A stretch of 64,000 nt of DNA, taken from contig JAPLLR010000046.1 in the NCBI GenBank assembly GCA_026387455.1, forward strand, positions 4,921 to 68,920, written 5' to 3'. Positions within the stretch are counted from its first letter, which is position 1, and each line of letters begins with the position of its first letter. The notes beneath the pieces were generated by a model. It was not told the DNA's origin. It saw nothing but the letters and a program-made list of their open reading frames with translations, and did no database searches. Position numbers and translations under genes: made by a program. Positions 2,894 through 47,100 of this stretch are shown piece after piece. The DNA is from Candidatus Omnitrophota bacterium (lineage in GTDB: Bacteria; Omnitrophota; Gorgyraeia; Gygaellales; Profunditerraquicolaceae).

Positions 2894-2900
2894 ATGAGCC

Positions 2901-5058: not shown

Positions 5059-5072
5059 GAAGTGTCCCTAAT
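5056..5072. repeat. right inverted repeat of the transposase cassette
   Basis: GTAGGAAGTGTCCCTAA. It contains the TAG stop of the transposase (5056-5058) and, on the other strand, the TAG stop (5068-5070) of the convergent TPR gene. Confidence 0.9.
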
Positions 5073-7852: not shown

Positions 7853-7880
7853 TTGACAGCGACGATCTTAATGATATACT
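7853..7880 (+). promoter_or_regulatory. near-consensus sigma70 promoter driving the riboswitch leader of the giant gene
   Basis: -35 TTGACA (7853-7858), 16-nt spacer, extended -10 TGaTATACT (7872-7880). Confidence 0.65.
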
Positions 7881-7889: not shown

Positions 7890-8000
7890 ATGAAACGAAA
7901 GGGCAAACCAGGAGTAATCCTGGGGCGCAAAGCCGCGGATCCTAGAAGTTGGATTAAATAATTTTAAGTTTCTAGTTGTTAGGATAGCCGGGCTGCCGAA
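7890..8000 (+). promoter_or_regulatory. c-di-GMP-I (GEMM-I) riboswitch-like aptamer
   Basis: Conserved GEMM-I blocks occur in the right order. These are ACGAAAGGGCAAACC (7895-7909); a hairpin CCAGGA-GUAA-UCCUGG capped by a GNRA-type loop (7908-7923); GGCGCAAAGCC (7924-7934); a long second stem (AUCCUAGAA 7939-7947 pairing with UUCUA 7970-7974 and GGAU 7982-7985); and a 3' block AGCCGGGCUGCC (7986-7997). Compare the V. cholerae Vc2 aptamer as I remember it: ..ACGCACAGGGCAAACC-hairpin(GAAA)-GGGACGCAAAGCC-stem-GGUAGGUAGCGGGGUUACC. Confidence 0.7.
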
Positions 8001-8044
8001 TACCGACGAAAAAATCAGTATTTGCCAGTTCGGCTTTTATTTTT
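7993..8044 (+). terminator. putative intrinsic terminator / riboswitch expression platform
   Basis: Imperfect hairpin CTGCCGAATACCGA (7993-8006), loop cgaaaaaa, TCAGTATTTGCCAG (8015-8028). An alternative outer pairing is GCCGAA (7995-8000) with TTCGGC (8029-8034). It is followed by TTTTATTTTT (8035-8044). The left arm overlaps the 3' end of the aptamer. Confidence 0.45.
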
Positions 8045-8139
8045 AAGTAGTTAATAAGTAGTTTTAAAAATACTTTATAAACGAGAATATGAAAAACAAG
8101 AGGTTTTACCTCATAGTATTTAAATTAAAAGTATAATAA

Positions 8140-23100: not shown

Positions 23101-26100
23101 GGTAAAGGCACGATCAAGGTAAAGGTAAATAATCCGGAAGCGCTCGCAGGAGACCAGAAGAAATTAGAGAGATTAAATCGCGCTGTCGCTAGGATAGAAA
23201 AACAGAATTCTCAAGCTCAGGATGAAGCGGTACAGGGCCAGATTCAGGAAGCTGGATTCTGGGCGAGATTAATCGGCAGAAAAGGCCGTTCAGCTTTTGA
23301 AGCCAGTCCTTCATCCAACCCTGCCGAAAGCCCCGCATTAAAAGAATTAAAAGCGCAACGCGATGCCTTAGCCGAGAAGATCACTAAGAATATGTCGCCT
23401 GTCCCTGAAGCTGATTTGGCCAGACAACATCTCCAGCAATTAAGGAAAGCCATAAATATTCTTAAGGAGACTACTGACTCTGACCGGGCTATGGATAGAG
23501 TGGTTAAGGAAGTAGTCAGCAAGGATAAAAAGCAAACCAACAAAGAGCGCCAAACAGAGGCGAAAAGGTTTATAGAAGAAGCCAGGCGCTATCTGCCTGA
23601 ATCGCAAGCCCCTAAGCCTGTTATACCAAAAGGTCCATCCGTCGTATATTTTGGCAACGAAAGCGGGCCAGTACAAAAAATCCATCTTAGCCCCAAAGAA
23701 ACAACGCAAGATGCAGCAGCGACAGCAGCGAAGGTTTTCCGCAAGCCTATTGCGCTTCTACCTGCTCATATATCTGCACCCAAGCCATTCTTTAGCAGAG
23801 TGATAGATGCCATAAAATCGAAGTTCTCTAGATCTGCTAAGTCTTCCGAGCCAGAGTTACTGCCTTCAGCTAGTCAGGAAGCAAAAGAGGCGATTAGAAA
23901 AGAAAGAGTAGCACAGAGAGATCAGCTTAAGAAAGTAGCGGCCATAGTAGCCGAAGCCGAGACTCCTGGTCAAGCTAAAGTAAAAGTAGCGCAGATGCTG
24001 CAGAGCGAGCCGGCTAAGAAAGACCTATCCAAAGAAGAGAGAAAGGTAGCTTTAAAGAGAGCAGAAGAGCTTATAGAAGAGGCAAAACCGTATGCACCTG
24101 AAGTCGAGCAAGGAAAAGAGCATGCCAGCAAGATCGAAAAAGTTACCAAGATCCTTCAGCAAACCACTGATTCTGATCAAGCCAGGGCAAAAGTCGTAAA
24201 AGAAGTAGTTTCAGACGGTAGAAAGCAGACTAAGAGAGAAAGAATTGTTGACCAGCGTAAGGCAGACCAGTTGATTGTAGAAGCCAGGCGCCAACTGTCT
24301 AAATCGCAAACTCCTAAGCCTGCTATGCCAAAGAGCCCATCCGTCATAAACTTTGGTAATGAAAGTGGGCCAGTAGTAAGAATCAACCTTGGCCCCGGAG
24401 AAACTGCGCAAGATGCAGCAGCGAAGGCTTTACGCAAACCTATTGCGTTTCTACCCGCACCTAAATCCCAAGCCAACAGGCAAGAAGTTGCTAAGCCTGC
24501 TCCATCCGAAGATGTTCGGCCGATGTCTGATGAAGCCATAGCTAAGAATCGGCTGGACAATAGGCAAAGGATAACTGAATGGAAAAACCTGAAGAGAATA
24601 GGACAGATACTTTTCGAAACAGCAGATATCCAGCAAGCCAAGGCAAGAGTAGCGCAAGAGGTGCTTGGGGTCGGTAAGGAAAGATCCCAGAGAGAGCAAA
24701 AAGCTGCGCTTAGGAAGGCAGAAGGGCTTATAGCAGAGGCAAGGCAACATGTGCCTAGCGCCACCACCACTACTGTTGCTCCCAAGTCCAAAATGACAGA
24801 GGTGGCTAGGATCGTGCGCGGTGAGAATGGCGAGCCTGCATTTGAGGCACATCCGACTATGAGTTCCTCCAGCGCGCAGTTGAAGGAGTATGTAGCTACA
24901 GAAGAAGCAGCCCATCTGACATTAGGTAACAGAGGCACAGCCGCGGAAGAAATCGCTGCTAATGTATTTACCCTTGAACGCTTAGGCATACGCGATGCTG
25001 AGAAAGTTACTGATCCGCATTTAAGAGCTTTAGCAGAGATATCATTGGACCATGGCGTAGAGAGCCCCATAGTAAGGACTGCCCGTTTTTATAGCGAGAT
25101 AGATGCGCAATTAAGAGACCAGCTTGTAGACAGCCATGGTAATTTGCGCCGGGACGTTTTGGATAACGCTACTAGACAGCTTGCGGGCCTTAGGAAAAGA
25201 AGCAGCGATGTAGAGGCTCGCAGAGACCATTTGAAAGATTTATTATCCTGGTCGCGCATAGCCGTCAGTAAGGAAGGCCAGCCTCAAGAAGTTTTGGCGC
25301 GTTCGCCGTTCAGGATGGCAGACGCTGGTAAAGAAAGCGCGCAGAAGACGCTAAGTGAATTAATTAGTCAAAGTAACTCCTTGTCTACAGAAGAGGCAAA
25401 AGCTCTTGGGGTTGCAATAAAGAATGCAATAAAATCAGGAACGCCAATTGATCAAATACAAGATCCTACCATTAGAAAGGCAGCTCAACTTTGGAAAAAA
25501 GCTTTTGAAAGTCCAGAGCTAAGAAAAGTGATGAGCTTAGAACTTAAGGAAGATCAGATAGCCCAGACTATATTAGAGGCTGTATCGAGGCCGATACTAG
25601 GTAGAGATTTGGGTGCTGGAAAGACAGCAGGTGATATCGCAGCCTTTGCAGTTCGTTTCCAGGTAGCTACGCAAGAAGGTAAAGAATTGAATGAAAGTTC
25701 TTGGAAAATAAAAGATTTCTTAATTGAGCAAGCAATTGATGGCTCTGACCCCATAGCAAGATTTTTTATGGAAGAAATCGCTAAATCCGCAAAGATATTG
25801 AGATGGGTTGTCGTGCCAGATGGAAAAGGCGGCACAGAGTTTAAAGAAGTGCCTATTGATGGTTTTGAAACCCCAGCGGACGCAAAGAGTAAATTTATTT
25901 TTGCTGATAGTGAAACTCTACTAGAAGTTTATCTAGGAGCAAAAGAGAAGAATGGCGAGAAAATGCGCGAAGCATTTAGGCAACTTACAGGAGCTAGCGC
26001 AGACGAAACACAGCTTTTCTTTGCCAATGCAACTTTGATTAAAGCAGAAATAGGGAAAATGTTTAGTCAGTTAAGTAGGGGAAATATTAAAAAAGCAGAG

Positions 26101-29100
26101 CTTATAGCTATTTTATATGAAAAATTAATGAAGTTAAAGGAAACCACGCCGGATTTAATAGATGGTCGATTAATCATAAAAGATGGATTAGGTAAGGAAG
26201 TAGAGGTTCATTCCTCAGCTTGTATAAAGGATGAATATCTACCGACGAAGTTACTTGATTTATATAGAAGCATGCGTAAAGCTAAAGAGTTACCCTTTTC
26301 AATGTCTTTCGAAGAATTTAAATCATATGCCCAGCATTGGGCTAGTTCTATGAATCAAAGAATTGACGCAAACGTCTATGTTGAGCTCGACCATTTCGTA
26401 ATGACGCCAGAAGAGAGGATTAAAGCTAACTCTCATCCTTATAGAGTAGCTCAAGAAGATGGGACGGGTCGTCCGAGTACTATTTTAGGAGATCCAATAG
26501 AGGCAGCTTTCTTAGTTGCTAGAATTACTGATGCTAAGCTGAAGTTAGTCTCCGAACCCTCTTTTGATAAGTATACCCAAGAGGAGCGAATAGCAGATAT
26601 AGCGAATGCTCGGCTTCAGGAGTCAAAGAAAAAAGCAGATTTTGCGGAGTTGATTAGCGGGGAATATGGCATAGGAGCAGATAAATTTACTGGCTTTACT
26701 GCAACCCCTGGTAGGGATATGTTACAGTATTATGGAGTAGGGAAGAAGCAACGCGATATACGCTTACTTGATCCGGAGAAATTAATTAAGGAAACGGATC
26801 GAGATTTTAGAGCGACACTTGACAAAGCTATTGAAGGTCAGATAGATACACATATTGGTAATATTAGAGATAATCCGCGCGCTTTACATTTAGGCATTGG
26901 TAGAGATGCAGCTATTGTAAGAAGAGCCTATGAAACAACAAAAAAAGCGGTAGAAGCTGGAGAATTAGTTAGTTCAGATGGTCGTCCTTACGAAGTTAAA
27001 TTTATTGAAGGGTTTGAACCAAAAACACAACAAGCATTGATGAAGGAGTATAGTAAAGGACGCCTTGAAAAACCGATGATTATATATGTTGTCGGTGATC
27101 CTTCAGGAGGTAATATAGCTGCTTTATCAAGAGGTGTAACATCAGCTGCTACACATCAGCTAACCATGGAAGGTATAACTAATATAACTCAGCATCTAGG
27201 TAGGGCAGGAACAGAAGGTAGGGCCGGAGGTTTACATCCAAAGGATCCAGTGAAATTTTTAACACTATCTTTAGAAGATCAGTGGATTACTCCTAAGCAA
27301 AAGAAAGAATTAGCCGGGTTAACTGGTAGAGACTTGACTAAGAAATTAATAGATATTGGGTATAATATTGATACAGTTATTGGAGAACAAGGTTTTCACC
27401 GTACATTAATTACTTCAGTTTCAAATATACAATATACACAAGCAGAGTTAGCTGCTTTAAAGGCAAATTTACAGGCAAGAAGAGATTCTCAGCGGACACA
27501 AAATAGAGATTTAGGCGTATCTTTGAATGGTACCTTAAATAATGTGCCCGAAGGCGCGCGTAAAGTTATAGAAGCAAAGTTTTCTAATGCTCAACGCGGT
27601 TGGACAATTCCCGCAAGCGATTCTAAAACAGCTCCGCTTAATTTAACTACTGCGGGCAGTCTCGTCTGGCAACAAACCCAGTCACTTATGCATGCTGCGC
27701 AAGACGACCGTAAGTCAATAGCTTCTCTTAATCTTGGTTTGTCTTCAACAACCCAGGCAGCGTTACAGGCAAGAGATTTAACCACGCAGGAAGCTTTTAC
27801 TGCTGTAACTGAGATGGTAGATAATGGCGTTCTGAATTTAGCCCATCCTGAAAGAGGAATTACCTCGTTAGCAGCTATCGGTGGAGCGGTGAGGGCGCTA
27901 AACAGCCAGAATTCGACTCAGCCGCTTAATATAGGTAAGGCTGAAATCGATGATATGTATAATCCTGTTTCCCGCGATTATAGCTTACTGCGTAGTGTGA
28001 CTACACAACTGCAGAATACTAATCCGCAATTAGCCAGAGAGCTGCAAAGTGTTTATAGTGGTACTTATACCACTTCGCAAAGACAAGAATCTATCCGCCA
28101 AGCTGAATTAAAACTTGAGGCTAGGCAGATTCGCTTAGTGAATAACCAAGAAGCAGGATGGGAAAAGACAAAGAGAGGAATTGGTTTTGTTGCTGGCGGC
28201 GCGGTGCTTGGTACGGTGGCCGGCGGTGTCTCCTGGTTCCAGAATAAACAGCGCCCGACAAAAGACGAGATGAAGGATATATACAGGAATACTAGTTTTA
28301 TCTTGTCGAACCTTCCTTTAATAATCAGGGCTAAACCCGAAGCAGGGGTTGCGGTGGCGAAATTATCATTCCTGGCACTGGGAATTGTGCTAGCTCTTAA
28401 ATTAGCGCCCCCAGCTATACCTTTATTAGCTAAATTAGCCGCAAGCACCAGCCTGGCTGGCTTTCTAGCTCCGATAGTGACTTCTTCAACAACTAATCTC
28501 GCGATATTAGCAGGGACAAGTGCTGCCATAGGATTGCCGGCAATGAAAGCTGTGGATGTTGCAGCCAGAAGGCAACAGGTCACAGTAGGCAAGATCACTC
28601 CTTTGGCCCAGGAATTAGGCGTATCCGAGGGGCAGTTAGCTCCATTATTCACTCCGCGCATCCAGCCGCGCGCGCCAAGTGAGATGATTGGCCGTACTTC
28701 TTTCCTGCAGCAGGCTAATCCTAGCAAAGCCGCGAAAATGGATGTTAATAAGTTGGTTCCCGGCCTTAATATGGATGAGGTAAAAGGGTTCGTTAGTATC
28801 TTTAACCGTCCATATCGTAATGCCGTAAATGCCACCACAAAGTTAATAGAAGCCAATTCCTATTTCAGCGCGGACAATCTGCAGGCGCAGGCTTTTAGAT
28901 CGATTAATCTTTCGGCCAAAGCCGAAGAGCAGAGCGAGCGGGAAGCAAACGCAAAGAGGCAGGAGCTAAAGGAGGAAGCAAGGAAGCTTAAGATCCTGAC
29001 TCAGGCTTTATTAGCGCTAGCGGGAAATGAAAGCCGGCCTAATTCTGGTAGAGTAAAATTAAGCCGGGTCAAAGAGAAATTAGAGCGCTCCGGAGAGGAT

Positions 29101-32100
29101 TTGTGGGAGGTAGCAGAGAAGTATCGTCTTATCCAACCGGAAAATGCGGTTACCTTTGATATGGCTGAGCCGGTGGTAGAGAGATTATCCCGCAAGGCAG
29201 GCATCTCTAGAGATGAGGCCAGAGAATTTGTTTATCCGTTGGTAACTCAGAGGACTAACCAGAATATCGCGCAAGACGTGCAGAATGCGCATAATGAGTT
29301 GATGGTAACCATGCCAGTAGCTGCCGATATGATACCTTTACCTACCATCGCCAGTGCGACTAGAGATGGCTCATGGCAGCGCTTTACGGACAGATTAAGA
29401 GAGCGCAATGACGCTGACCTTGCGGAAGCCAAACTTATTGCCGAGGCGGTTAACAATACTCAGGCAAAGGGTTGGAATATTGGCAGAGTTCTTACACATA
29501 TTAGCCCGGAGAATTTAGCAAAGACAAGGCAAGATATTGCTACCGGTAAAACAGATACTAATGTTCCGGAAATTGCCAAGCCTGCTGAGCCGAAAGCTCC
29601 TACTCAGGCAGAGATTCGCTCTAGCCTCGAAACTTTAAGCCAGAAGACAGAACGGGTCACTCTTGCCGGAGGACGCAAGGTAGAGGGAGTCAGGGTAGAG
29701 GCCGGCACAGCGGTTGAGATCAGCAATCACCGTCCGGATGGAAAATTTGTAGCTAAGGATCTAGCCAAGCCTAAGGATACGGCAAAGATTAGCGTAAATA
29801 AGGACGGCTCTGTCTTAATTACTAGCAGAAACGGTTTAGGCGATAAACTTGAGAAATTAATCAAGAAAGAAGTTCCGCAAGCGCCTTATGTAGACGCGGT
29901 AAAGCCGATCTCTAGTATTACGCAGACTGTCACTACGATTGCTGTGTGGGGTTTTAGTGTTGCGATTGTTTTAGCAGCAATGCATACCGGTTGGTTTGAC
30001 CCCGCAGCATTAGCGCATCTTGCCGGCTGGAAGGCGTTCTTAGCCAAGGGAATCATTAACGGATCGGTTATGTTGGCAGCTTTGACTTTGCATGAACTTG
30101 GTCATGCTGCTGTCGCTTTCTTTGCCGGAGACAAGAGCCAGAAGGTCAGGGACAGGTTGACGCTCAATCCGCTTAAGCATTTAAGCGTATGGTCTTTACC
30201 TATATTAGCAGGATTACCGGGCGCGGCAAAGCCGGTAGAAGTCAATTTTGGCAGATTAAATGACAATAAGGTGAGGGCAGTAGCTGCCGCAGGTCCGGCA
30301 GTTAACTTAGTTACTGCTGGCCTGGCGCTAGGAATATTCTTATTGACCGGTAATCCCACGGTTGCCTTGTTCGCAAAGCAGTTTGCAATTATCAGCGCTG
30401 TGCTAGGTACCGTTAACCTTATTCCATTTGCCCTTCCTCAATGGATAAGTAAGTTTATCAATAAAGGCAACAATAAGCCGGTATTATTTGACGGCGCGCG
30501 CGTGATCTTAGGCGCGAAAGAGAAAGTTTCGCCTAAGATGCAAATGGTAGGCGGTGTTGCCCTTATGCTTTATATGTTCGGGCTTGGGCCAATTCTGCAA
30601 GGACTTGGTTTTGGCGCTGGATTAGGCGCAGGCATGGGCGGCGGTGGAGCCGGTGTAGGAGTAGGCGGCGCAGCAGGCACCATCGGCAAAGGTAGTGGTT
30701 CTGGCGGTGGCGCTGGCAGAGGCACAGCTGAGGTTAAGAGAATTGAAGAAGATGCCAAAAAGGTCAAGCAGTGGTTTAATGATGATTTGAAGCAGATAAG
30801 AGAGGCAAGAGAGGCTCTAGACAGACGGCTGAGAGAGTTACGCAGTCTTATACCTAAACCTCCAATATTAAGCGAAGAGCAGAGAATATTTACTGAGAAT
30901 ATCTTCAGCCGCATCTATCCGCGTTTGATGACTGTCGGAACTCGTCTAGTGGATAATTACCAGAGACTAGCTGGTGAATATGGCTTAAAGCCGGGCAATA
31001 TACGTCTTTATGTGGTTGGAGGCACTGCCAAGAATAAACAGTTAATCGGCTTCAACAGTGATATTGATTTAACTTTTGTTGTAGAAAATTCCGCTGGTTC
31101 TTTAGAGGTCCTGCCTAATAGAGAAGAGTTAGTGCAGAGCCTCTTTGCGGACACGATAAGAGATGTCTTCGGCGATGCCACTGATCAGGAGAGGGCAGCC
31201 ATCCGCGGTAAACTAGATATGTTAAGGTTAGGAGGAGCGCTGAATGAGATTAATGGTCCAGCATTGCTCCTGGCTAGCAGCGAATCCAATAAAGCGCAAC
31301 AGTCTTCACCTAAGCCTACTCAGCCTACTGGACAAGGTCAAAATAGGCATCAGGAGACTCCGATTGCCCCGACACCATCCACGACTTTGCCAACTCAGGA
31401 GCAAACCGGAGAAAAATCGCCTCTCAGAGGAGCTGTGGTGGGCATGTTTGGCTCAAGCATTGGCGTAGGCAGCCATCCGATAGACATGCTCGCGCCTTTA
31501 GATACCTTAGGTAATACTGTCAATTCACTACAACATTTACTCAGTATAGGTGCTGCACAACGTGTGCTTAGCCCGGGTATTCCCGGGGCGACTGCGAATG
31601 CGCTTTCGCAGGTCGTCGGTACGACAAGTGCGCACAATATAGTTACAATAGTTGCAGTAGTAGGATTAGTTGTAGTAGTAGTCACAGTTGGCGCAATAGC
31701 TCTGGTTAATAGCTTCAGAGCAGATGCGAAAACTGCAGGTGCAGGAAGTGTAATCAGCGGAGACGCTGAAAAGACCAGTGGTTCCCAGTTTGCGCCCGGT
31801 AAAGATGCCGGAAACAAAGGTTCCAGAGGTGTAACCGAAGGAACTCGTAATGGCACGGGGTTGCCTGTAGGAAACAATACAGGTAATACCGGAAATACTG
31901 GTAATGCAGCTACTGGATCCAATGGAAATAATGCAGGTTCTGGCAAGAGAACCGGTGGTTGGGCGAGTGCGGTCGAATTAGTAAGAAAACTGTCTTCATT
32001 TGTACGTATCAAAGGTCCCGCAAATAGCCTCACTCCCGCGCAAGTTGTGTCGGAAACCTATGGCGCTCGTGGTCCGCCCGCAGCACTAACAATCATTATA

Positions 32101-35100
32101 GCTACTTTCGCCGCTACGGTAATGCTGGGCAACATCTATGCCGCATCAGCGGTAACGGTTGCCGGTTTACTCGGCGGATTAGCCATAACAGCCCTCTCGG
32201 TAATTGCCTCCTTTAGCATTAATCATATATACTCCTCAAGACTTTATCCGCAAGACGGCCAGGCCAGCATTATAACCACAGGCGTCTACCGTTATTCTCG
32301 GCACCCGCAGCATCTTTGTCTGCAGTTATCCATGCTTGGTTTCTTGGCGATGTTCCCCACAGTTTATACCGCCATTACCGTCATCGCCGTTGTTTCATTA
32401 TTCCATCTTGAATCCAGAAAAGAGGAAGCGAAGTTATTAAATGACTCAAAGCTGGGAGCAGATTATGCCGAGTATCTCAAGAATTCCGGCTTGAAGATGC
32501 TCCCCAGAGATATTGCTAAAAAGATTAGGCCGTATACTTCTTCCGTGGCAGGAGTGGTGACGGCTATTGTTGTAATCGGAGGCTTATTAGCGGCCCCCCT
32601 CCAGGGATCGACCCCCGCTAAAGCCTCCGATACAACGTATACTACAACCAATCCAATCAATAATATAAATTTAACCAAGTATGGCGAGCCTTCCGTGGCA
32701 GGAGTTCGTCGTACAAATGTTGTATCAGAGGGCTCCACAGAAGGCCGTCCCTCCAGGACATTGACCCCTTTTGCCGGAGCCCTCTTTACAACTCAAGGAG
32801 GTGTACTATGTGCCCTATTAATATTAACACTATTAGCATTGACCACATCGTTGATTTTGGCAAGGACCGCACCACTTTCGCAGCAGCCCGTGAACCTGAT
32901 ACGCACCACCTTAGGATCTTCCTTATTTATCAGGATACTGGCAACGTCTACACTCGTAACGGCCGGGCTGATAGCTGGGAGGAGCTTATTGGCGGCAGGC
33001 GTGATACCATACTTGAGCGCGTTCTTGATGCTCGTAGGAACGGTGTTCCTACTTATCGACTTAACGGTTCGCACGAATAAAATAGGATTAACGGTTCGCA
33101 CGAATAACAATAACATAGGAGGTGTAAAATGTGCACAGATTATAACGAATTACAATTCAACCACTTCGTCGTTACAGCCGACGGCACAATCTTTGGAAGT
33201 GCTAGACACGAAGGTCACACCTACAACTTTATTCTCCACGGCAACTATGTCCAGGCCCAACACGGTGAACAATGGATCGATCTGGACACGCCTATCGCAG
33301 AAGTTGTCAGGAGAAGGGCTCAATCAGCCTACGCTATCGCTCCCCGGTACAAGGCCAGCAGGTTCATCTTCGATTAGAACTGCCGGAGCAGTGGTAGCTT
33401 TGGTGTTGGGTGTGATTCTTATTGCCGGCGCGCTGGCAGGCATTCCTCATGGAGTGGCCCCTGTCAGCGCCGCCGTTGCATTGGGGATGTGCAGCCAGGA
33501 AGGAGTTGCTACCGAGGAAGATAGCTTTAGGAATTTAAGGTTAACCCCTGATTACATCCGAAGCGTCCGCTTCGATGAGGAAGAAATAAGAGGGGCGGAT
33601 GAAACTGAACGCCGCATCAATCTTCTTATAAAAGGTATGGGGGACTCTAATTCTCCTTCCGAAATTGGAATAGTAAAGATCCCGGGAAGCCTGAAACGGG
33701 ATAGCTGCCGGGTGTTCAGGTTCAGTAATATAGAAATGACATTTTTTGAGGTCACCAGCCGCTTTGATTCGCAGGAAGGAAGATTCTCTTTGCCGGCGTT
33801 GCCTCAACAGCATGCTTTCCTGATTTCATCAAAATCAAATGATGTCATAGGGCACGGAATCATTAATCGGCCTGTCGGTATTAACGATGAAGTATGGTTC
33901 AGGTATGCTATCCACGGCGGACCTCACAGCAAAATTGGAGCTGATTTCCGGAAAAAAGATTATTATGGGACCAAGGCTTTGGTTTTGATTATGGCGATAT
34001 GTGTAAGCAGCGGTATTTTCAAGGGCCCTGTGAATGCGATTACAACATATTTTGAGAGAGATGAACAGCGCGCTGATCCGGAAGCAGTTCCCGCGGGTAA
34101 GAAATTTATATATGCCAGAGGATGTACTCCTGTTAAGGATAATGATTATTCTCTCTGGCAGTTTAGAATGGATGGTAAAGCCATACCTACCGTAGATGTA
34201 GATGAAAAAGAGCTTGCTAAGCTTGATGGTCGGTCAGCGCAGGAAGACGACTTTGTGGAAGTCAAACTCGGTGACCTGGTGTTTGAGAACGGTCAGCTTT
34301 TCTACCGCCCGAAGGCAAAACCTGAGGATTCAAAGGGCTTGTCCGGTTTTGCGCTTAACTTGAGCCTCTGGCAGTCAGGTTTGATTGTCACTGCAGTTAT
34401 CGTTTTAGTCGCAGCTATAGCCGTAGCCGTAATGGCTAATAGCGTCAGGGGAGATATTTCTTACTTGGATAAGGCTAGAGTTATTCTAGCCAGCCGCTAT
34501 CTGGAAGATTATCAGCGCAGGCAGTTGTTTACGAGAATGGCTAAGGGAGAAATCAGGTTTACCCAGGACACTAGGTTCAGCGACGAAGCGGTGTCCATAT
34601 CAGGAAAGTCATTAAAAGATATTGCCCAGGAAGTATTAAAAGTTATTAATTACTATGAAAATTCGACGCCCTCAGTCAAGGCCAAGGGCACCAATATTCT
34701 GGCCAGACTGTTTTCTTCCCTTGGTTTTATAGTGTTTGTTATTGTGGGTATATATGAATTTGTCTATGCCATGTCTGATTATAACGATGGCAGGGGCAAA
34801 AATTACGCTGCTATGAATAATGTGGATGAACTTAGCTATTCCGTTAGAGATCGTATTTGGGCTTCTCAGGAAGAGTTCATCAGATTATTAGGCGAGGATC
34901 CCAGTAAGGCTGTAAAAGCCGACAAAAAAGAGAAAATCGGCAAGGTAGCTCAGATGTTGGATTTCATGAATGTCCATCGCCAGGCCATCCAGAAATATGC
35001 CGATCAGTATGGAATCGATCCGGAGCTACTTGCCGCGATCCTCTTGACTGAAAGACTGGATATGTTTGAAGGAGATTTCCCGTGGGAGGTTAATACTGAC

Positions 35101-38100
35101 AGATGGAGCGTATTAATCGGCCGCGATGCCTCCGTGGGTATCGGTCAGGTGCGCATGAGCACTGCCCGTTCACTCTTAAAGGCTGCCAAGTATCCTGAGT
35201 TTAAAGGCAGGAAAACCAATGTCTCCAACTGGAATCTTTATAAGATGCTCACTAATGAAGATCCGGAGTTTAATATTATGATAGCGGCTATGGCCTTAGC
35301 AGATGTAAGGGACGGTATTGCCAGGGATATTAAGAGCAGCAGGTTGCCGCAGCTTAATGCCGAGCACTTAAGACTGGAAATGGCTTATCGTTACACTTCT
35401 TCCTTGAAAGGCCCGGTGGGTGCGCCGGTAAGCTTCGCAGAGTATAATAAACAGATAGAGAATAAAGATAAGAAGGCGTACAACAGGTCACAGGCAAATG
35501 AGTATGCTTATTGGGTAAGAGCGAATAGGGATTTAATCCGCGGTTTATCCATCTTTACAAATGCTCCCATAGCCAGAAGCTCGCTGCCGGCATTCAGCAT
35601 CTCAGGGGGATTGGATCTGATAGTGGCATTAGTTCTGGCGGTAGTAATTATCGATGCTATCTCGGCGACTTGGAGATATGTTGATCATAAGTTAGGCGAC
35701 CGCCGCGCAAATGAGAGAAAAGACGGATTGTACGCATCTGATAAATATAGAGAGTTTAAGAATAAGGATAGGCAAGAGAAGTTGAACGAGATCAAGGGGC
35801 AGTTTAGGCGCGTAAGAGAAGTAGCGGTATTATGGATAGGGTTGGCAGTCGTGGTGGCTGGGCTGAAGTGGGGCCTGAATAATTGCCGCAAAGACAATGC
35901 TCCGAGCCTGCGTGAAATTGCAGCTGAAGTTTGCGCTGATGCCCAGACCATTAAGGATGAAGGTAATAAATTTATCCAGTGGGGTAAGGAAAGATTCAAT
36001 GATCCGCGCTCTTTCGGGCAGCAGGCTAATTATGCTGCCAGAGAGTTTGGCCGGGATCTTGGCAGTGGTTTGAAACAGAATGAATTGCTTATGCAGGGCG
36101 TAAGCGGAAAAATGGACGGCGAGTTTGCCCTGAAGAAGATAGAGGAAATCAGGGAGGAAAACAGAAAGCAAACCACCAACTCCCTGCCGGCAATCAGCAT
36201 CATCGCGCCAGCAGCGATAATTTCCCTGGTTGCCTTAGCAGTGCTGGTTTATGCGATCTATAGGATTTGCCTGGTTAATAGATATTCCCGCGATAGAGTT
36301 ATAGATATGGTTGCTACAAAGCTGGAAGATAAAATAATTGTTGATACCGAGGAATTAGCCGAGACCAGGATCAGTGGATTAAATGACGCAGAAGAGCGCT
36401 TTGTCCGTGCGATAGTATTGGCAGAAGAGGCGCTTAAGGTCAGGGACCATGAGTTAATGGCTGAGGCAGTAGCTGGACTTTTCGTGGAAACAGAAACCGG
36501 CATAGATATTAAGCTGTTGAAGGATTACTTGGGATTAAGAGAAAAATATGAGAATCCGAAGATGTCTCGTGAAGAAAAAAGAAAGACCCAGCTATCTATA
36601 GCCAGGCATGAGGTGAAGCACGTTATTTCCGGCGTTATGGAAACTCCTAGAAATTCACAGCAGAAGCTGCCTTACTTCGCATATTTTTCTCCCTCCAGCT
36701 TTGGCGGCAGCGTCCAGGTTTCTGTTACTTGCGAGAATACCCGGAAAGCGATCCGTAGGCTCCAAGATATAGAAGCAATCGCCGGCCGAGTCTCAAATCG
36801 TCTCAATAAAGAGGGAGTTATAGATTACCAGGGCCTGGATGCTGAGGCTAATTTTGGCCTGAAGGCAAAAGAGGTGCGTTTTGTCATGGCGATAGTTCAG
36901 GCAGAAAGGGCCATGCGTAAGGCCAAGTCTGATTTAATGGCAGATGCCATCGTAACGCTTTTCACCGCTAAGGAAGTTTCCGCGGATGTATACTTCCTTG
37001 AGAGATACCTGTCCTTAAGAAAAGATTACGAACGCAGAAGGCAGGCTGATGAAGAGGAAGGGCGAGGCAAGGCGCATCATGAAGCCAGGCTGCATATTGT
37101 CAGGTCCGAGCTAAAAGATGTCCTTTCTGCCGTAATCAATATTCGCAAAGAGCAAGGTATTCAGCTGCCCGGATTTGCATACTTCTCACCGGCAGCCTTT
37201 GGCGGCGGAGTTGCAGTTTCCGTCAGCAGCGCAAAAGTAGAACCCATTATCCGTAGAGAGGTTGGCAGCAGGTTTAAAATCGGTGGTACTGAATATAATG
37301 AGGCGGATTCCAGTCGCGGGCATCGCATCGCCGGAGGAAAGGCTTGGAATATTCTGGCGGATTGGGATGTAAACACTGAAGGCGTTTATTTCGAAATGTT
37401 GAAAAGGTTAAGCAGCAAGGGTGTTGATTTAGCGTCCGTCTCAGCTGATGGCCGGGCTGATGTCTTAAGGGAAGTCTTTGATACTATCTTGAATCTTGTC
37501 CCCTTCAATGCAAATTTTGAAGGCCTCAGCAAAATCGGTAAAGTATTCGAGCAAGGCGGAGTCTGCAAGCATCATGGCGTATTAATTGCCATGTTTGTGG
37601 AGCGCATACTTAACAATTATAGCTCTAAATGGAAAGGCGCAATTTACTTTGTTTACGGCCCCAGCCATAATCCCACCCATGCCTGGGCCCTTTATGTGAC
37701 CAGGGCTGGAGATTATTGCGTTTTTGACGTAACACAGAGAAAGATCGTTGGTCTGGATGGGCAATTTAGTTGTAACGATCAAGGCACAAAGGTTCCTTAT
37801 TCTGATGGTGTAGGTATGAATGATATCATCGCACGCACCAACGCAAGATTACGGGAGAGCAAAGAAGAATCAGATAACTATAGCGTTACCGGCTTGCCTA
37901 CATTTGGAGAAGCGATTCGCAGGGATCCCCAGAATCGCAGACCGCCCTCTACTGATGATAGAGAGTTGCCGGCACTTGTCTTCGTAGATACGCAGACATT
38001 AGTTGTAGTAGCTGCGGTGGCGGCAGTGATTATCGGCGCAGCTTACCTTGTTTACCGGGTCTATAACGGTTATATGAATCACAAAGTAGCAGTGGCAAGC

Positions 38101-41100
38101 ATAAATGAGATGGCCAGGCAAGCTAGCCGCGCGCCGAATAATATGTTTAACCGCGCCAATATTGTACGCATATCCGTATTACTTGCCGCAGTTATTCTGT
38201 TAATCTCCGTAGGATTATTCCATTTCGTAATTCTGGCAGCAACCACAGTAGAAGCAGATATCGAAGAAACAAAGTCTAGGATCAAGGCTGAAATATTAAG
38301 GCTTAGCGGTTCTGTATATGACAATGAGAGGTCTAAAGTAATAGCCGAATTCTTTAAAGGTTTGCCGGAGCAAGACCTTGCTCTGGCAGTGGATGTACTT
38401 TTGGAATTATCCGATGATCCTAGTATTGGACAATGCTGCATAAATCACTCTATGACCCTTTCTCTTGCAGAGAGCTGCCGCGTCAGGCCGGAGCTTATGG
38501 AGATAGTGGCTTCGAGAATTGCGAATTTAATAAGTCAGGGCATAGGCAGGAAGGCTATGCTGGTAGAGATCATCAATTTATTTAGTCTGGTATCTTATGA
38601 GAACCGCGTCTTAGGAAAATCAGATTTCTCAGCGATGCTCTTGTGGAAGATGCAGGAATTAGGCATACCTATGCCGAGAATTATGGAATTGTTGGGTGGG
38701 TGTTTCAAGACCTGGCGTGAAGATTTGGAATATGATTATACATGGCCTGAACAATCTCTCGGAGAGAGCATTGGTTTAAATTGCAATGGCGGAGCGGTAA
38801 TATTGAAGTCCATTGATAAGAGCTGGTATTATATTTTTAACACAGACAATGTTTGTATAGGCAGCGCGCTGATTAGCTGCGCTATGCAAAGGAATGCAGC
38901 TTACCTTTATATTAATATATGGACTGGAGCAGGCAAGGGCATAGGGACTGAGATTATGCGCTTTGTCGCCGAAAAGATAAGCAGAGTTGATGGGCCCAGC
39001 GTTATAGGGGTATTTGTCCCGGCGGACAAGGATTATGTAAGATTCTTGCTGCGCTGCGCAAAGCTGGGAGTTATCAATAGAGTTGAGCTTAAAGTCGAAG
39101 ATAGCGCTAAGTATATCAATAGCGTAGGCATGGGCAATTGGAATATGCCGGAACAGTCTTCGGGTTGGCAGGTAATTACGAATGAAGCAGAGATGGATAA
39201 TTTTGGCAAAGGCAGAATATTTGCCAGATGCATTGTAGATGCAAACCAGCCGCAGACTCCTTCCGTGGCAGGAAAGAATGCGGCTACTGACAATAAGGGC
39301 ACGGAGGAACAGAGAAAGGTAAGCTCTTCCGTAGCCCTTGTTACAGACAAGCTTGGGGTGCTGGTAGCGATAGTTGGAGCATCAATTCTATTAGCGTTGT
39401 CAGCGAAATTCTTAGGGCTGGCTTTATTAATCGGCGTTGCAGCGGTAAACAATGATGATGCGAAATACGTGTTGAATATCGAACTCCTCAAGGCAGAGCT
39501 TGTCAATAAGGGGATTCTTCGCGATAAAGATCAACCGCTTAATATTAATCCTGCAGTATTAATTGCTGTTAGCGATTTCTGCTATACCGATGGAGAGTAT
39601 TTGGTAGGAAGAGAATTCCGTAGGCTTGCCAAGGCATTAGGGCTTGTGATGAGGGAGCTGGAGAGAAGAACCGGTAAACCGGCTGCAGAGATCAGTCTTA
39701 GCCAGAGCAGCCTTACCAAAGAAGAAATCGCAAACATCTTAAATGCGGCTAAGGAAGAAGATTATGCGCAAAGAGAGGTAAGCGCGTTCTCCAGAAAGAT
39801 AGAGCTTGGCCAGAGGTTGCTTAAGGGCGGCACTTCTGCCGAGACCATCCTGCAATTCTTAACTGGTAGATTCTTTGGGGCAACCTCAGGGTCCACTAGG
39901 TCTATCAGCGCTACTGAACATAAAGTGAAAGATTTACTCTTTGATATAGATCATACCCAGGAAGGCAAGTCTTTGCGTAAGAAAGAAGAGACAGCCAGAT
40001 TACTGAAAGAGCTTCTCGGCCAGGTGGTGATCGACAATGTCAATATTCCCAAGTTTTTCGCCTTTGATATCGATGACACCTTAACCAAAGCAGACATTAA
40101 ATCCTTTAACGCTATGGTTGAAGTCTTAAAAGAAGACCCATCTGCATTTGTAGGAATAATTACCGGAACAGGCGCTTTTGACCTGAATTATGATTCAGAA
40201 GAAGAGCGCATTGCTGAGAAAGACGCAATATATGACACCAAGATTAAGCCGGCTCTGGTTAAACTTGGCCTGAACCCGGATCGCCTAGATTTTGTTATCT
40301 CTGTTGTTTCTACTCCAAAGCCGAGAAAGCAATGGACTGAGTCGCCTATGGTTAATCCTTGGGTTAGCATTAATGCATACTGGTGTGTAAAGATTAATGA
40401 CGGAAACGGTGGTTTTATCAAACAGTATCCGACAGAAAGCAACTTTAGAGGTATAAATAAGCTCACCGGAGCCAGCAAATTATTCGAATATTTTGCCCAT
40501 AAATTCTCTAACAACGCAACAGTTTCTTGGGAAAGGGCAGCTCAGTTGGCTACTCAGTTCCTGCATAGGTCAGTATTGGTTATGGCGGATGATGATCTTG
40601 AGCATGCGCGTATTCCTGTGATTTGCAAGCCTACCAATAGCAAGGAAAAAGGTATGTTGCAGCAGCTTGGCGCTCATTCGCGCGAAAACGAGATACAGGA
40701 GCCTTTCGGAGTAGGCAGGATTTATATTAATACTAACGTTATCAAGTGCCCCTGGTTAACCATCGAAAAAGCTCCTGAAGAGTTTGTTTTTGATTTTGAA
40801 ATTGATGTCATCCTGGGTCTGACTACATTGCTTGAGCATATGAATGACCCTAAGCGTAACGCGCGTATCTTTAACGTGGAAATCGAAGCCCATCGCGTTA
40901 AACCGGTTAACGGTACTGCTAACGGTAATTCCACAGATCCTCAGGTCGCGACTTACCGCGCTCCCGGCTCAAGGGATAGGGGCGCGCGCAAGGGCTTGCC
41001 CAAGGAGATCAGAAACGCCGAAGAAAAAGATTCCGCGAACATCAGGCAATACTTGCTTGACGATGACGGCGAGGTAGCTAAGCTCATCGCAGGGCGCAAT

Positions 41101-44100
41101 AGCAGCGAATTAACATATTACGGATTCTATAAGAAGCTGGCAGAAGAGATCCTGCCTCAGGGCAAGGTTATCTTTAAGGTTATACCTTCCCAGAATATGG
41201 GCTTCAGGAGAGACGACGGCGATAAGACCTATATCTATGCCGTCGGCACAAAAGGCGATATTACCTATATCTATGTCACTTCTGCTTTATATGAAAAGAT
41301 CAGGGCAAGCACATATTTCAAAGCTGCCCTTTGCGTCCATGAGGTAGGCGAGACTAGAGACGTGTTCAATCACCTGACTGCCATGAAAGAAGAGATCCGC
41401 TTTTCCAGCGATCCGAAAAGCAACTTAAGCGACATGCAGCGTCTTGTATTTGATTCCGAGAATGATAAAGGAAACATGGCTTACCTATTAAGCATTATCC
41501 CGGATCGCCTTGTCCAGAAGGCATATTCTGATATCACCAGCGAGATGATCAGCTATGTAAGCCTGCTTATCGCCAAGCAGGTGCACGAAAGGCCGGTAGA
41601 CGCAGCTGTCATAGAGGAGGATGCTAATATCGCTGATTCTTTGCGTCATAGGCTATTCGATTCCATAAATAAGGCTACCCAGAATATTAGCATCCTTGGG
41701 CAGGGAGGCATATTATCAGAAGAGGTAAGGGGCGCCCTGAAAACTACCGAAGAATCAATCAACATCATTCTTACTTCCATAGAGGATGGAAAATTGAACC
41801 CCATAGCCAAAGACGCAGCGATCAAATTGCTTAAGAAACAGGCCAGGATCCTTAGGGAATTAACAGAAAATATGGCTTATTTGGAAAGATTCGAATCTTT
41901 TAATTCTCTTAAGAAGGATATCGATGAGTTCTACAAGAGGGTAGTTGAGGGGACACCTACGGTGGTAAAGGACCAGGAGCTGATTGACCTGGCTGATTTT
42001 ATGCAAGCCATCCACACTGAGCATTATGGGTATGGCTTTAGGCCGGTTGTTTCTGACCCTGGAATGCCTTTACCTATATTAATTAATGCGCATGACCTGA
42101 TGAGGATCTTTGAAGATCTATTACAGGCAATAGCTAGGAGAGCACATAAATCTAACACGGCAGTAGTATTTGTCACTGAACCCGGATTAATTAAAGTGAT
42201 TTTTAAGAACACCGATGCAGACGTAGTTGCTGTTCAGGCACTGCTGGAGAAGTGGCATGGCAGGGCATATCGTACACAGATAATCGGCACTTTAGGTGAT
42301 ATCGTCTTAGAGTTCCCTAAGGCTTTCAAGCTCTATCAGACTATTTCAAATGAAGTATTGGCTCAACTTGCAAATACAGATTGGGTTGTTTCTGTCTGTC
42401 AGCATAAAGAAAACCATGAGAATTTTATTGTTGATGAAAAGGTAAGTAGGATGACCGTTTACGGCCAGTATCTTTCACATGGCATGTGTCCGCAGTGCGA
42501 AAAGAAGAATCGTCCTGTTGAGTCAGAAGCTCAGGCAGCCGCAGCGAAGGTTCCGTCTGCGCCAACCAAGATCAGAGTTTTGTTTGTGGATGACGAAAAA
42601 GCAATTAGGGATATGATGGCGGGAAGAAATAATATGCCAGGATACCTGGCGATGATAGCTAAAGATAAGACAGTGAATCTTTCTTTTGAAGTGGTGATCG
42701 CGGAAAACGCCCAGAAGGCGCTTAACGCGTTTGTAGATGCCCAAAAGAAAGGACAACCTTTTGACTTAGTGGTCACCGATATGTCCATGCCGAAAAATCC
42801 TGATGAAGAGATCGAAGGCGGACGTGAATTAGCCCAGGCGATTAAGAAGATTGCACCCCAGACTTATATTATTATGGTCAGCGGTCATCACAGCCAGATG
42901 ACAGAGGTGGCCCAAGCTATCAAGGAAAATGTAATCAATAGTTTCTACACCAAGCCATTTATCGGAGAGGCAGTTAAGGAAGCGCTGCTAGGGTTTAAGA
43001 CCGCGCCCAACCTACAGGAAAAAGCACCTGTTAAGCAGGATGTTAGTATACTTGGTTCTGCGGCTGCCAGTGCCACAGCAGCGGCTACAGCAGCGCTGGC
43101 TTTCTACGCAGCAAAGGCAGTGATTATTTCCAGCTTTCATCCTTTCGCCATAGCGTTATTCGGAGTTTTAGCAGCAGTGTGTTTTGTCTCTGCGGCATGG
43201 GCTTATCTTTTTGGTTCGCAGGCTATCAGGCTATGGTTAACCAGGGCCAAGCCTGTACGCGCGCCTCCTGAGGCAAGAGCCAGGTTAGAAGCACAGCTGC
43301 AGGATTTCTTCGGGCCTGATGTCAAGGTGGTTCTGGAATCCGACTGTAAGACTATTGCCTCAAGCGATAAAGATAATAAGACAGTATTTGTTGATATCGA
43401 TTGGCTTTATAGGGTAGCTCCCCGCGCAACTGAACTTACCTCGTTCCAGAAATCTCTCCTCACCCATGAAAAAGCCCACTTAAACGGTGCCACAGAATCA
43501 GAAGCTTATATTGCCCAGGTTCTCGCTTCCCTTGTCCAGGATATTAATAATGCTAAGGGCGTTAAATTATGGGCGCTGTTCCTGGGTGTAGTTACATTAT
43601 GCCTAAGTTATAATAAACTTATTGCCGCATTTCCGATTTTAGCCACAGGCTGGATCGGAGTCCTTCTTATTGGCACAGCACTGGTGTTGTTGGGTGTTAA
43701 CTTTGTGCTTGCAAAATTCACCAAGAGAGGGGCTTCAGCTTTCTTTACCACAGTTGCATTGACTTTCTTCTTTGTCGGTCTTCTATTGGCGGTGGATGTG
43801 TTTAACCCGCTTTACGGAAATATCCTGAAGAGCTGGTTTCCGCAGACATGGTTGGCTTACATTGCTGACATGCGCGGAGCGGCAATAGCGATAGTAGCTT
43901 TTATTTCTCTGATCGTTCTGCCGGCTTTGATCAGGGAATATCAGGATAAGTTGGCCAAAGAGGATATCTATAAATACGATATCAAGGCTTTAAAAGATAA
44001 TCTTCTCAGGTTTATTAACGACGACATCAAGGATGAAAAGGTCAGGCAAAACTATATTGATCAGGTGGAAAGAATTGCTGTAAATAATTCTCGGGCAAAT

Positions 44101-47100
44101 AGAAGATACCTGCGCGATGTGCTTATGGTGCTGGAATGGGAGTTGTCAAAACAGAATGCTATCAAGGACCGCGCCTCATTGTTCCCGACTGCCCAGGAGC
44201 GTAAAGACGAAGCTGCAAGCGTTGATACGCAGAAAGCTCAAGACGCCCAGAAGGCCGGAATTGGGGCGATAGCTAAGGTTTCTTGGTTAGGCGTACTTTG
44301 TTCTTTTATCGGTCACAGCATCCAGGAGAGGGAAAAGAGGTTCTGGGACAGGGTTGCGGATTATTCCGGAGCTAGGAAGGTCTTTTACTTTGTCTTCGCT
44401 TTAGTTGCATTCATTCCTAGTTCAGCATTGGGGATAGCATTGCATTTTGGCAAGGCAGCCAGAGATTTCTTTATCCGTCATCAGGATAGGAACAACGAGG
44501 AAGCTTTTAGAATGCATGGCATGATGGCTGGTAAAGAGCTTTTGAAATTAGCCGACGCAGAAGAGCATGTAAGGGCTGCGTTTATGATGGCGGATAGGAT
44601 CAGCTTGAGCGGTAAACCTTCCGCCAATGTTTCGAATAGTATCAGGTTAAGCAAGAGGGGAATCTTCTGCCGGGAATGGTGGCGCTATCACTGGTTTGCC
44701 GCCAGAATGCGTTGGCCTAATGTCACCGGTGCCCTCTCATTTGTTAAGAGCAGGGTGGTCTTATTGATTTGCGGTTCCATCATCAGCTGGCCGATTGTCT
44801 ACGTTCTTTGCATACACTGCCCATGGTTGGCTAATGCTGTTCCGTTAATCAAGCCGCTCTTAGATGGCTGGGCTGTCAAGCAGGGCTTCCCGATTACCTG
44901 GGCCGAAATCTTGAAGATATTCTTCCTAGAGCTCTTCCTTACCTTCTTCCAGAACCCTGGTCTTCTTAGGGATGAATTATTGCGTTTTAATGGAGCGCAG
45001 AGCATTATTCAGGTCGAGCCCGGAAAGGCCAGCGCAAATATTGATAGGGGCATTATAAAAGGATTAAATGAGAATAATATGAGCACCAGGAAATTATATA
45101 ATGCCGGCTATGTTATCTTTACCGGAGCCCCGCATCTGAAGCTATTATTTGAGGAGAAGTGGGGAGCCTCCCGCGATAGCCATCCTTTGATTACCCTGAA
45201 AGCTTTCGCAAGCAATATCCTTAACGTAGCTACTTTAATGGTCCCGCTAGTAGTTATTCCCACGATGCTTTATACCTTATCTAGCTGGCATGTAGCATCA
45301 GCGGTCCTTATCTTATCGCTTTCTTTAGTGGCCTTCTTGGCTCCCAGACAATTCTATGTGTATATAGCGTTTAAACTCTCTCCGCCAAAAGACAAAGAAG
45401 CGCAGGATAGGTTGAAAAGAAGAATAGTGTTCGCCGCGGCATTGGATAAGCAGAAAACTGATTTCTTAAAGGGCGCGTGGGGGCTATCCATCATCGGAAT
45501 TGAAATCGGCGCCATCCGTGAATTAGGTCACCTGATACAGGGCCCGATAGGCACCATCGCTGATATTTTTGAAGGGCCGGAAGGCGCCCTGTCTCTCGGC
45601 GGACGCTTCTTCTCTTACTACGAAAGCCAGATCTGCGAGCATGTCTTTGGAATGCAGATTGACCAGCAGGATGAGCAGGATAAGAAAGAAATAGTTAGCC
45701 AGTTCCTTTATAATTACTTCGGCGGTAAGGGCCCGATGGAAGCAGCGTTTGCCTATGCCAGCTATCGCAATCGCGAATATTCCAAGGCCGCGCAGCTTAT
45801 GTCTGGCATCGTGAGTAGGTATGATTTAGATCAAGAAGGCCGTAACTTGACTGACAATGTCATGAAGGCTAGCGGTGAAGGCCTATCAGATAACCTTGGA
45901 AAGGCGATGAGGGAAAACGCCGAGGCCAGGGAAAGGCTTGCCAAGAATCGCGATAGATGGATAGCAGATATGGCGGACAGTCCTTATTTAAGCCAGGAAG
46001 CGTTTCTGGGTATGTTTGGCGTTGACGGATTCGAGCACTATTATAACGCTGTTGGTGACAATAAGAATAAGCTGGATCAGACTTTGCCTAATTCAGTCAA
46101 AGAAGTAAGAAATAATCTGATTCAGACAGCTCAAGTTGCTTTTGAGAAATGGCTCGTCAAAGGCGGGTTAGCAGAAGATTCCTTGCCTGTCGAGTTGATA
46201 GTAGCCAGGCAGTCTGATGTGGCTGAACCGGTTTCTGGCCAGCAGCAGGTGGCGGTATTAAGAATAAACCCTTTAACCAAGGAAGCCAGGATTTACTACT
46301 GGACCTCAGATGGGGAAACGGCTAAAACAGAAGTTTCTTGGGCCAATATTAGCGGAATAGTGATACCTGAAGGATTAAAGCAGTCTGTCATTGTTCTGAC
46401 CTCTCAGGAGCTCTTGACTGGCGAAGGTAAGGATGCCGGGTTCATCGTGCAGGCAAAAGGCCTGATCGAGGCGGTGTTAATTGATATCAAAAAGACCAAG
46501 ATTACCCTTGCAGAAAAGGACATTGATACCAGGGTGCTGGAGGAGCGTAAGGCAGAAGCGCTCAGGATAAAGGGCGTAAGCCGCCAGACTGAAGCCATCC
46601 ATATCAACGGAAACGGTAACGGCGAAGACACCCAGAGCATTATGGATAAGTTGATCAAGTTGGGCCCCAAGACCTGGCGCCAGCTTTTGAGAGGAGAGAA
46701 TCAGCAGGATTTTGTGAGCGTGATTAAGGCCATGGAAAGGGCTGGCTATCTGGATGACTGGAGCGAGGATGGTTTAACCGCAGCCATGGAGGCCTTCTGC
46801 AGGAGCAAGGGAGATTTAGATTTTAGGAAAGATTTCGCGAAGGTAAAAGATGCCGTCGTCAAAGAGCTGAGGGAGAGGGTCGGAATAGAAAAGGAAATAG
46901 AGAAGATCAAGGTAGAGATCAAGAAGGTTGATCCTTTAGAAGAGGGCAAGAAGAAAGAGCTCAAGATTAAAGAAGTAATGCTTGAGATAGAATTAGCCCA
47001 GATGGCTAGCAAAGTAAAGGATGCAGTCAGGGAGACCAAGGAAGATAAGGCAAGCGTAGCCACCAAGATAGGTAATTGGATTGGTCGCCAGAAGACAGAG

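Follow-up and report, generated by a model that had tools for sequence, protein, structure and literature searches.

Does the middle of a giant bacterial gene encode a dedicated pair of enzymes for attacking cell envelopes? The question is raised by a 64,000-nucleotide (nt) stretch of DNA from a Candidatus Omnitrophota bacterium (contig JAPLLR010000046.1 of assembly GCA_026387455.1, positions 4,921 to 68,920), here called the window, whose own numbering is used throughout. A preliminary description, made from the sequence alone, had placed a lytic transglycosylase-like domain of the SLT type and a transglutaminase (TG)-like cysteine protease at nt 34930–37760 and proposed that both act on walls, either of another cell or of the producer. 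Our analyses point to a different arrangement, which we regard as probable: two independent, catalytic-looking modules lie in the membrane-embedded middle of one giant Omnitrophota envelope protein, namely a Tse3-type glycosidase and a TG-fold cysteine enzyme, and they do not form a pair.

Stop-codon mapping showed that frame 1 of the plus strand lacks stops between nt 8137 and the window end, i.e., over 55,863 nt, and that the other five frames each contain 725–1,815 stops in the 64-kb window. From ATG 8140 onward, 18,620 residues can be translated in the bacterial code with zero stops. Only part of the giant gene is visible, as the open reading frame (ORF) runs past nt 64000, and all lengths are hence lower bounds. 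The flagged stretch corresponds to residues ~8930–9873 of this ORF; no ordinary plus-strand ORF had been listed there because the ORF list omits those running off the source. The motifs LLTERLD, GIGQV and NEDPEFNIM that had drawn attention to the stretch are all present in the frame of ATG 8140, and the codons proposed for a catalytic triad were read correctly (TGC 37564, Cys9809; CAT 37678, His9847; GAC 37726, Asp9863). The two “tiles” suggested for separate expression are instead domains within one protein, encoded by a single 55.9-kb ORF. The end of the proposed range was set too early, since the TG-like domain extends to ~nt 37881. The spacing, first given as about 2 kb, is 2.5 kb between the candidate Glu codon (nt 35050) and the Cys codon (nt 37564) and 1.7 kb between the domain edges. 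Two separate genes are ruled out by the uninterrupted ORF. Minus-strand ORFs in the region were dismissed, all being at most 113 aa long and inside the giant ORF, and an alternative genetic code was dropped, as the plus frame is already open under table 11.

For the first module, the expected Pfam SLT match stayed below the gathering threshold (15.1 versus 21.3 bits, E 0.018), as did SLT_2 (15.3 versus 24.3 bits, E 0.012) and T6SS_Tse3_cat (PF22115; 13.2 versus 27 bits, E 0.086). All three sub-threshold matches are lysozyme-clan models, and the best Protein Data Bank (PDB) match of the single sequence was Tse3, at E 0.26. When 1.84 billion representatives were searched exhaustively with phmmer, 11 homologs of the domain emerged (E 3e-27 to 4e-4). 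One of these, P0001, passes the PF22115 cut-off with 28.8 versus 27 bits, and the profile of the 12-sequence family matched six Tse3 PDB sequences at E 5.6e-9. When the AlphaFold model of the domain (pLDDT 76.6) was compared with the PDB by Foldseek, the 50 best matches were all Tse3, MltE/C/F, Slt or goose-type lysozymes, with Tse3 leading and TM-scores of ~0.5.

Five columns are invariant in all 12 sequences: E51 (Glu8971), D67, S78, G80 and Q83. The candidate catalytic Glu is thus not substituted in any of the 11 homologs, in line with the preliminary description. In the alignment to Tse3, E51, S78 and Q83 correspond to Glu250, Ser275 and Gln280, the Ile of AAILLTE (position −4 relative to the Glu) corresponds to Ile246 and the Asp at position +3 to Asp253. 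Previous work on Tse3 identified Glu250 as catalytic, Ile246, Gln280 and Tyr376 as conserved groove residues, and Asp253, Gln254, Glu258, Asp262, Ser275 and Gln280 as ligands of two active-site calcium ions (PMC3792639). Among these Ca1/Ca2 ligands, the equivalents of Asp253, Ser275 and Gln280 are conserved and Gln254 is replaced by Met; Glu258 and Asp262 appear as Asp and Glu in a loop of uncertain alignment. Tse3 itself, the nearest characterized relative of the window domain, is a type VI secretion system (T6SS) muramidase effector of Pseudomonas aeruginosa (PDB 3WA5, 4LUQ, 4M5E/F, 4N7S; PF22115). The window domain shares with it profile homology, the lysozyme/SLT fold and the five residue equivalents named above. 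Unlike Tse3, it is internal to a polytopic giant rather than a free T6SS effector, and its family has conserved T-D and Y-T-S motifs of its own; no T6SS genes or Tsi3-like immunity context were seen in the window.

Family 1 lytic transglycosylases are recognized by a catalytic Glu in an E-S motif and by the motifs GLMQ and AYNxG. With members of this family such as Slt70 and MltC/E/F (PF01464), the window domain has in common the fold, the Glu at a helix end and, within its S-x-G-x-G-Q motif, a G-x-G-Q similar to GLMQ. It differs in its sub-threshold Pfam score, in the Arg or Gln instead of Ser that follows the Glu, and in a conserved YTS in place of AYNxG. The “SLT-like” call thus holds at the superfamily level (lysozyme fold, GH23) and not for a typical family 1 lytic transglycosylase; judged from family profile and predicted structure, the domain belongs to the lysozyme-like superfamily as a divergent member of Tse3 type. 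Standalone homologs of this family begin with signal-peptide-like segments.

The second module proved more elusive at the sequence level. Transglut_core (PF01841), the profile expected for it, gave no hit at E ≤ 10 for nt 37300–38100 and none in ten homologs, and neither the tile nor its homologs nor their family profile matched Pfam, NCBIfam or PDB sequences. The exhaustive phmmer search recovered 14 homolog clusters, and word-indexed searches with the 1,067-aa region and with the TG-like profile added nothing new. In the resulting 15-sequence alignment, G117, C119, H121, A127, E131, G143, G150, H157, Y162, G167 and D173 are invariant. Among them, C119, H157 and D173 are the Cys, His and Asp of the proposed triad, which is hence preserved in 15 of 15 sequences, with no substitution of the Cys. 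This Cys sits in a conserved motif G-G-x-C-[KR]-H, and a conserved N-terminal extension, F-E-I-G...G-H-x-I-x-G-G...R-E-x-I-x-V-D-W, is peculiar to the family. In the AF2 model (pLDDT 74, with 85–95 in the core blocks) the Cys opens helix 119–136, and His and Asp are located at the consecutive strands 158–163 and 169–173. A Cys at a helix start with His and Asp on strands is the classical papain/transglutaminase arrangement. The top three Foldseek matches of the model were menin, LapG and PNGase, all of TG-type fold.

The domain thus resembles the TG-like cysteine protease superfamily (PF01841; LapG/BTLCP; TglA, 9CRN; PeiW; TgpA) in its ordered Cys-His-Asp triad, whose Cys lies at a helix N-terminus and whose His and Asp occupy neighboring strands. 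It is unlike this superfamily in the missing sequence-level match, in its N-terminal extension and in its phyletic range. The transglutaminase-like call is therefore upheld at the superfamily level by fold and intact triad, without membership in a Pfam family; the family was previously unannotated and is missed by current hidden Markov model libraries. Genome scans located TG-like relatives in three Omnitrophota and two Elusimicrobiota metagenome-assembled genomes, in each case within a large ORF (1,173 to >4,013 aa); short or fragmentary entries aside, the proteins of the family comprise 930 to >18,620 aa. As far as seen, the family is found only in large proteins of these two phyla. Many relatives begin with cleavable-looking signal peptides ending in A-x-A/Q, and the TG-like relatives have FHA, GNAT, Metallophos or TPR domains as fusion partners.

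Among the relatives of both families there are also large signal-peptide proteins in which the domain is fused to Fic, FHA, GNAT or calcineurin-like phosphoesterase domains (P0002, P0010, P0012, P0017 and P0025; loci L005 and L006). Such partner domains normally act inside cells. These fusions resemble multi-effector toxins, which may hint at delivery into another cell.

The distribution of the two domains speaks against a dedicated pair, as had been proposed. Not one of 25 homologous proteins has both, nor does any of eight related loci: neither five TG-like loci nor two SLT-like metagenome loci nor L012 contains the two together. L012 covers part of a related giant gene and shows transmembrane helices, the SLT-like domain and, downstream, a receiver domain. 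The lysozyme-like and TG-like modules are not a conserved functional pair, and their juxtaposition is unconserved in anything retrieved.

Between the modules lie, as first described, transmembrane helices and a duplicated module, more precisely three hydrophobic helices (B, C and D) followed by the two repeat copies (Table 1). The duplicated module had no homolog outside the giant protein in the exhaustive phmmer search or among Pfam, NCBIfam and PDB sequences; a sub-threshold Lyx_isomer match to it (19.3 versus 20.8 bits) was dismissed as spurious. We derived the topology from hydropathy, the positive-inside rule and the receiver domain as a cytoplasmic marker. As the loop after helix B consists of 32% Lys and Arg, the lysozyme-like domain would be outside. 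For the TG-like domain, the answer hinges on helix C. Its summed insertion free energy of +1.5 is the weakest, the other helices ranging from −2.8 to +0.3, on a scale whose values reportedly go back to Hessa et al. in 2005. With B, C and D all membrane-spanning, the duplicated modules and the TG-like domain would be cytoplasmic, on the opposite face from the lysozyme-like domain. If helix C does not span, both domains would be outside, with the Lys/Arg-rich E–F loop and the receiver domain (residue 11515) inside; this second model also agrees with the exported nature of the TG-like relatives. The two answers are self-consistent and opposite, and we consider them about equally probable. The earlier idea that both domains face outward is thus not confirmed.

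Under the reading we favor, the lysozyme-like domain would sit between transmembrane helices, most likely on the periplasmic face, where Glu8971 is predicted to cleave the MurNAc-GlcNAc backbone of peptidoglycan. Helices on both sides tether the domain, and the wall of the producer itself would therefore be its most direct substrate. In the simplest case it might open this wall locally for the exported N-terminal part of the giant protein and for the neighboring type II secretion/pilus machinery. Dedicated lytic enzymes serve secretion systems and flagella in an analogous way. A prey wall, since each domain is bracketed by transmembrane helices, could be reached only after proteolytic release or in very close contact. 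The TG-like domain would most likely act as a cysteine protease or isopeptidase; an attractive variant would have it process the giant protein of which it is part.

Several points weigh against this reading. The window's own sequence falls below every Pfam cut-off for lysozyme-like and TG-like domains, and the Foldseek E-values are weak, at best 0.01 for the lysozyme-like domain and 0.06 or worse for the TG-like domain. The topology is ambiguous, and the TG-like domain would be cytoplasmic if helix C spans, although its homologs carry cleavable-looking signal peptides. Triad and fold, moreover, do not separate a protease from a transglutaminase or acyltransferase; these and the isopeptidases all share them. 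Finally, a role in remodeling the producer's own wall is argued from a single feature, the tethering between transmembrane helices.

Two alternatives deserve discussion, both of which we consider unlikely to a similar degree. According to the first, closest to the original proposal, both domains face outward and jointly breach the wall of another cell, one cutting glycan and the other cutting or cross-linking peptide. The N-terminal signal-peptide-like sequences of standalone homologs imply that both families normally are exported, prey-wall degradation has been proposed for Omnitrophota giants in the literature, and a non-spanning helix C, with both domains outside and the receiver domain inside, would fit the short Lys/Arg-rich B–C and E–F loops. 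Nevertheless, a joint unit is hard to reconcile with the absence of co-occurrence in the 25 proteins and eight loci, with bracketing helices that would hold each domain at the producer's membrane, and with the opposite faces obtained when all three helices are counted. In addition, the fusion partners of the TG-like relatives are FHA, GNAT and Metallophos domains, not wall-binding ones.

In the second alternative, the TG-like domain would be a processing protease that acts in cis, comparable to LapG acting on LapA or to the MARTX cysteine protease domain; it would cut the giant protein or a partner giant and possibly release the muramidase. The consistent occurrence of the family in large proteins is in agreement with this, as is the cyclic-di-GMP-type riboswitch in front of the gene (see below). 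The Lap system, too, is controlled by cyclic di-GMP, and LapG is marked by a TAAG di-alanine substrate site, periplasmic location and Ca2+ dependence. The TAAG site, however, is absent from the 18,620 residues visible, no cleavage site is known, and the protein contains other candidates for processing in its C39-like domain and in an M50-like segment with HELGH. In favor of processing as such, cutting of giants into pieces by C39 or S8 domains has already been suggested as a possibility in the literature. One may further speculate, with slightly more reserve still, that the TG-fold domain founds a new cysteine-protease family for very large exported Omnitrophota and Elusimicrobiota proteins, in which it would auto-process giants and free the Tse3-like muramidase once the gene is switched on via its riboswitch; a logic like that of LapG/LapA or MARTX would then be built into a single gene. 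It is very improbable that either domain, or both, has decayed into a non-catalytic remnant used for binding or structure within a fast-evolving giant: such decay would suit the missing Pfam support, the high divergence reported for domains of giants and the non-enzymatic TG-fold proteins menin and protein 4.2 among the structural neighbors, but at 24–39% overall identity the invariant residues are exactly the catalytic ones (Glu, the Asp after it and S-x-G-x-G-Q in the lysozyme-like family; G-G-x-C-[KR]-H, His and Asp in the TG-like family).

The protein in which both independent modules reside belongs to a known class of giant Omnitrophota proteins, because homologs of its N-terminal C39 region are named Omnitrophota and its type II secretion flank and transmembrane helices match published descriptions of the “Archaeovorin” type and of the C39 architecture group (West-Roberts et al. 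2023, bioRxiv 10.1101/2023.11.21.568195; bioRxiv 10.64898/2026.06.07.730766). In the published descriptions, such giants combine an N-terminal C39 domain near a signal peptide with many transmembrane helices, type II secretion neighbors and transposase flanks, and less commonly contain an SLT domain. The window protein shares all these traits: its first 300 residues hold a signal-peptide-like segment and Peptidase_C39, with Cys135 within RPCGSKAL and the His within NGNHYVLV; hydropathy indicates ~30 hydrophobic helices at aa 6680–12400; and a very divergent SLT-type domain is present. A search with the N-terminal C39 region returned 48 homologs of 35–65% identity, most of them 51–65%, which are mostly named Candidatus Omnitrophica or Omnitrophota. 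The N-terminal 6,700 residues (window 8140–28240) contain only five cysteines, the C39 active-site Cys135 among them, and the cut-off used for transmembrane helices revealed no such hydrophobic window in aa 1–6700.

There are also differences. West-Roberts et al. define their class by a gene of >90,000 bp with a SecA DEAD-like domain (bioRxiv 10.1101/2023.11.21.568195). Here, at least 55,861 nt are visible of an ORF that leaves the window, and Pfam detected no SecA DEAD, glycosyltransferase, HEAT or dockerin domain in the 18,620 residues visible. A TG-fold domain is mentioned in neither preprint. The literature further describes the domains of Omnitrophota giants as highly divergent, their transmembrane predictions as inconsistent and peptidoglycan synthesis in Omnitrophota as complete. 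The giants of Omnitrophota rank with the largest proteins predicted so far, and the greater part of their sequence is without annotation. The present analysis sharpens this picture rather than overturning it. The “SLT” domain of giants can be specified as Tse3-like, keeping the Glu and several matches to the unusual calcium-site ligands, and a TG-fold Cys-His-Asp family, a candidate processing protease, recurs in large proteins of two phyla.

Expression of the giant gene could be controlled by a riboswitch. A GEMM-I type aptamer sits between a promoter-like site and the start codon, and its 3′ strand overlaps the 5′ arm of a terminator hairpin, which together form an expression platform. As the aptamer strand can pair into this hairpin, ligand-dependent antitermination is implied. 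In the related loci L009 (9715–9831), L010 (9746–9837) and L011 (9732–9831), the same Rfam family precedes the homologous C39 start by 170–290 nt, and each locus has an equivalent overlapping hairpin and U-tract. This suggests cyclic-dinucleotide ON control of the giant gene at four independent Omnitrophota loci, and provides a handle on when the cell commits to a transcript of 50+ kb. Neither preprint on Omnitrophota giants mentions a riboswitch; one of them notes PilZ neighbors and GGDEF domains. In L011, a second riboswitch of the classic c-di-GMP-I type (37.5 bits, 2334–2415) lies ahead of another C39-like gene (2601–3497).

Table 1. Features of the giant ORF and of its upstream region; positions refer to the window, residues to the translation from ATG 8140.
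Feature	Position (nt)	Residues (aa)	Strand	Basis or remark
Promoter-like site	7853..7880		+	TTGACA-16-TATACT, TG before −10; 11/12 consensus positions; consensus match only
GEMM-I type cyclic-dinucleotide riboswitch aptamer	7893..8001		+	best model c-di-GMP-I-GGC (RF03167), 64.7 bits versus gathering 59, E 5e-13
Terminator hairpin and U-tract	7986..8045		+	−24.1 kcal/mol, z −4.3, 0/200 shuffles as stable
Giant ORF	8140..64000	>18,620	+	open at window end; ≥55,861 nt visible
Signal-peptide-like segment		23–51	+	N-terminal
Peptidase C39-like domain	8512..8934		+	PF03412, E 2e-7, 31.3 bits versus cut-off 22
M50-like segment	30034–30342		+	HELGH inside hydrophobic stretch; Pfam match
ICMT-like membrane methyltransferase	32188–32436		+	Pfam, E 9e-7
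Predicted transmembrane helix A	34696..34773	8853–8878	+	hydropathy; before lysozyme-like domain
Tse3-like GH23 lysozyme-fold domain	34897..35565	8920–9142	+	profile, Foldseek, conservation
Candidate catalytic Glu	35050–35052	8971	+	invariant, aligns to Tse3 Glu250
S-x-G-x-G-Q motif of lysozyme-like domain	35131–35148		+	
Predicted transmembrane helix B	35611..35673	9158–9178	+	hydropathy; followed by loop with 32% Lys+Arg
Hydrophobic helix C	35815..35877	9226–9246	+	marginal as transmembrane helix; Kyte-Doolittle 2.06
Predicted transmembrane helix D	36193..36261	9352–9374	+	hydropathy
Duplicated module, copy 1	36310..36759	9391–9540	+	
Duplicated module, copy 2	36790..37257	9551–9706	+	38% identity to copy 1, E 3e-27
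TG-fold Cys-His-Asp domain, unannotated family	37225..37881	9696–9914	+	homolog alignment, AF2 model
Predicted transmembrane helix E	37996..38058	9953–9973	+	hydropathy
Predicted transmembrane helix F	38176..38244	10013–10035	+	hydropathy
Response-regulator receiver domain	42682..42984	~11515–11615	+	PF00072, E 1.9e-8

Upstream of the giant gene, the window contains two T2SSE ATPase genes, an IS200-type Y1 transposase gene and a TPR gene. The related loci L009 and L010 carry syntenic T2SSF genes together with a Y1_Tnp gene and a C39 start; very long genes follow, of which one encodes 14,858 aa. In all three cases the transposase gene has the secretion genes on one side and the giant gene on the other (window 4441–5058; L009 6637–7362; L010 8574–9278), and it may be a conserved or domesticated neighbor rather than a random insertion. 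Two ORFs without a Pfam match, 300–1640 (446 aa) and 6393–7637 (414 aa), flank the secretion ATPase genes of the window, and L009 has, at a comparable place, a 446-aa gene with a faint AF_1845 match.

Two related giant genes each have one in-frame stop between two long ORFs of the same frame (L010 11441–11443, TAA; L012 4884–4886, TAG), which could reflect sequencing error, pseudogenization, read-through or a genuine split; the window ORF has no such stop. Repeats are found in several parts of the giant protein. A tandem array with a period of ~70 aa and copies up to 73% identical lies near the visible C-terminal part (window 59716–63147, aa 17193–18336), and three more internal repeat regions are located in the exported N-terminal part, at aa 2396–3412, 4264–4453 and 4700–5555.

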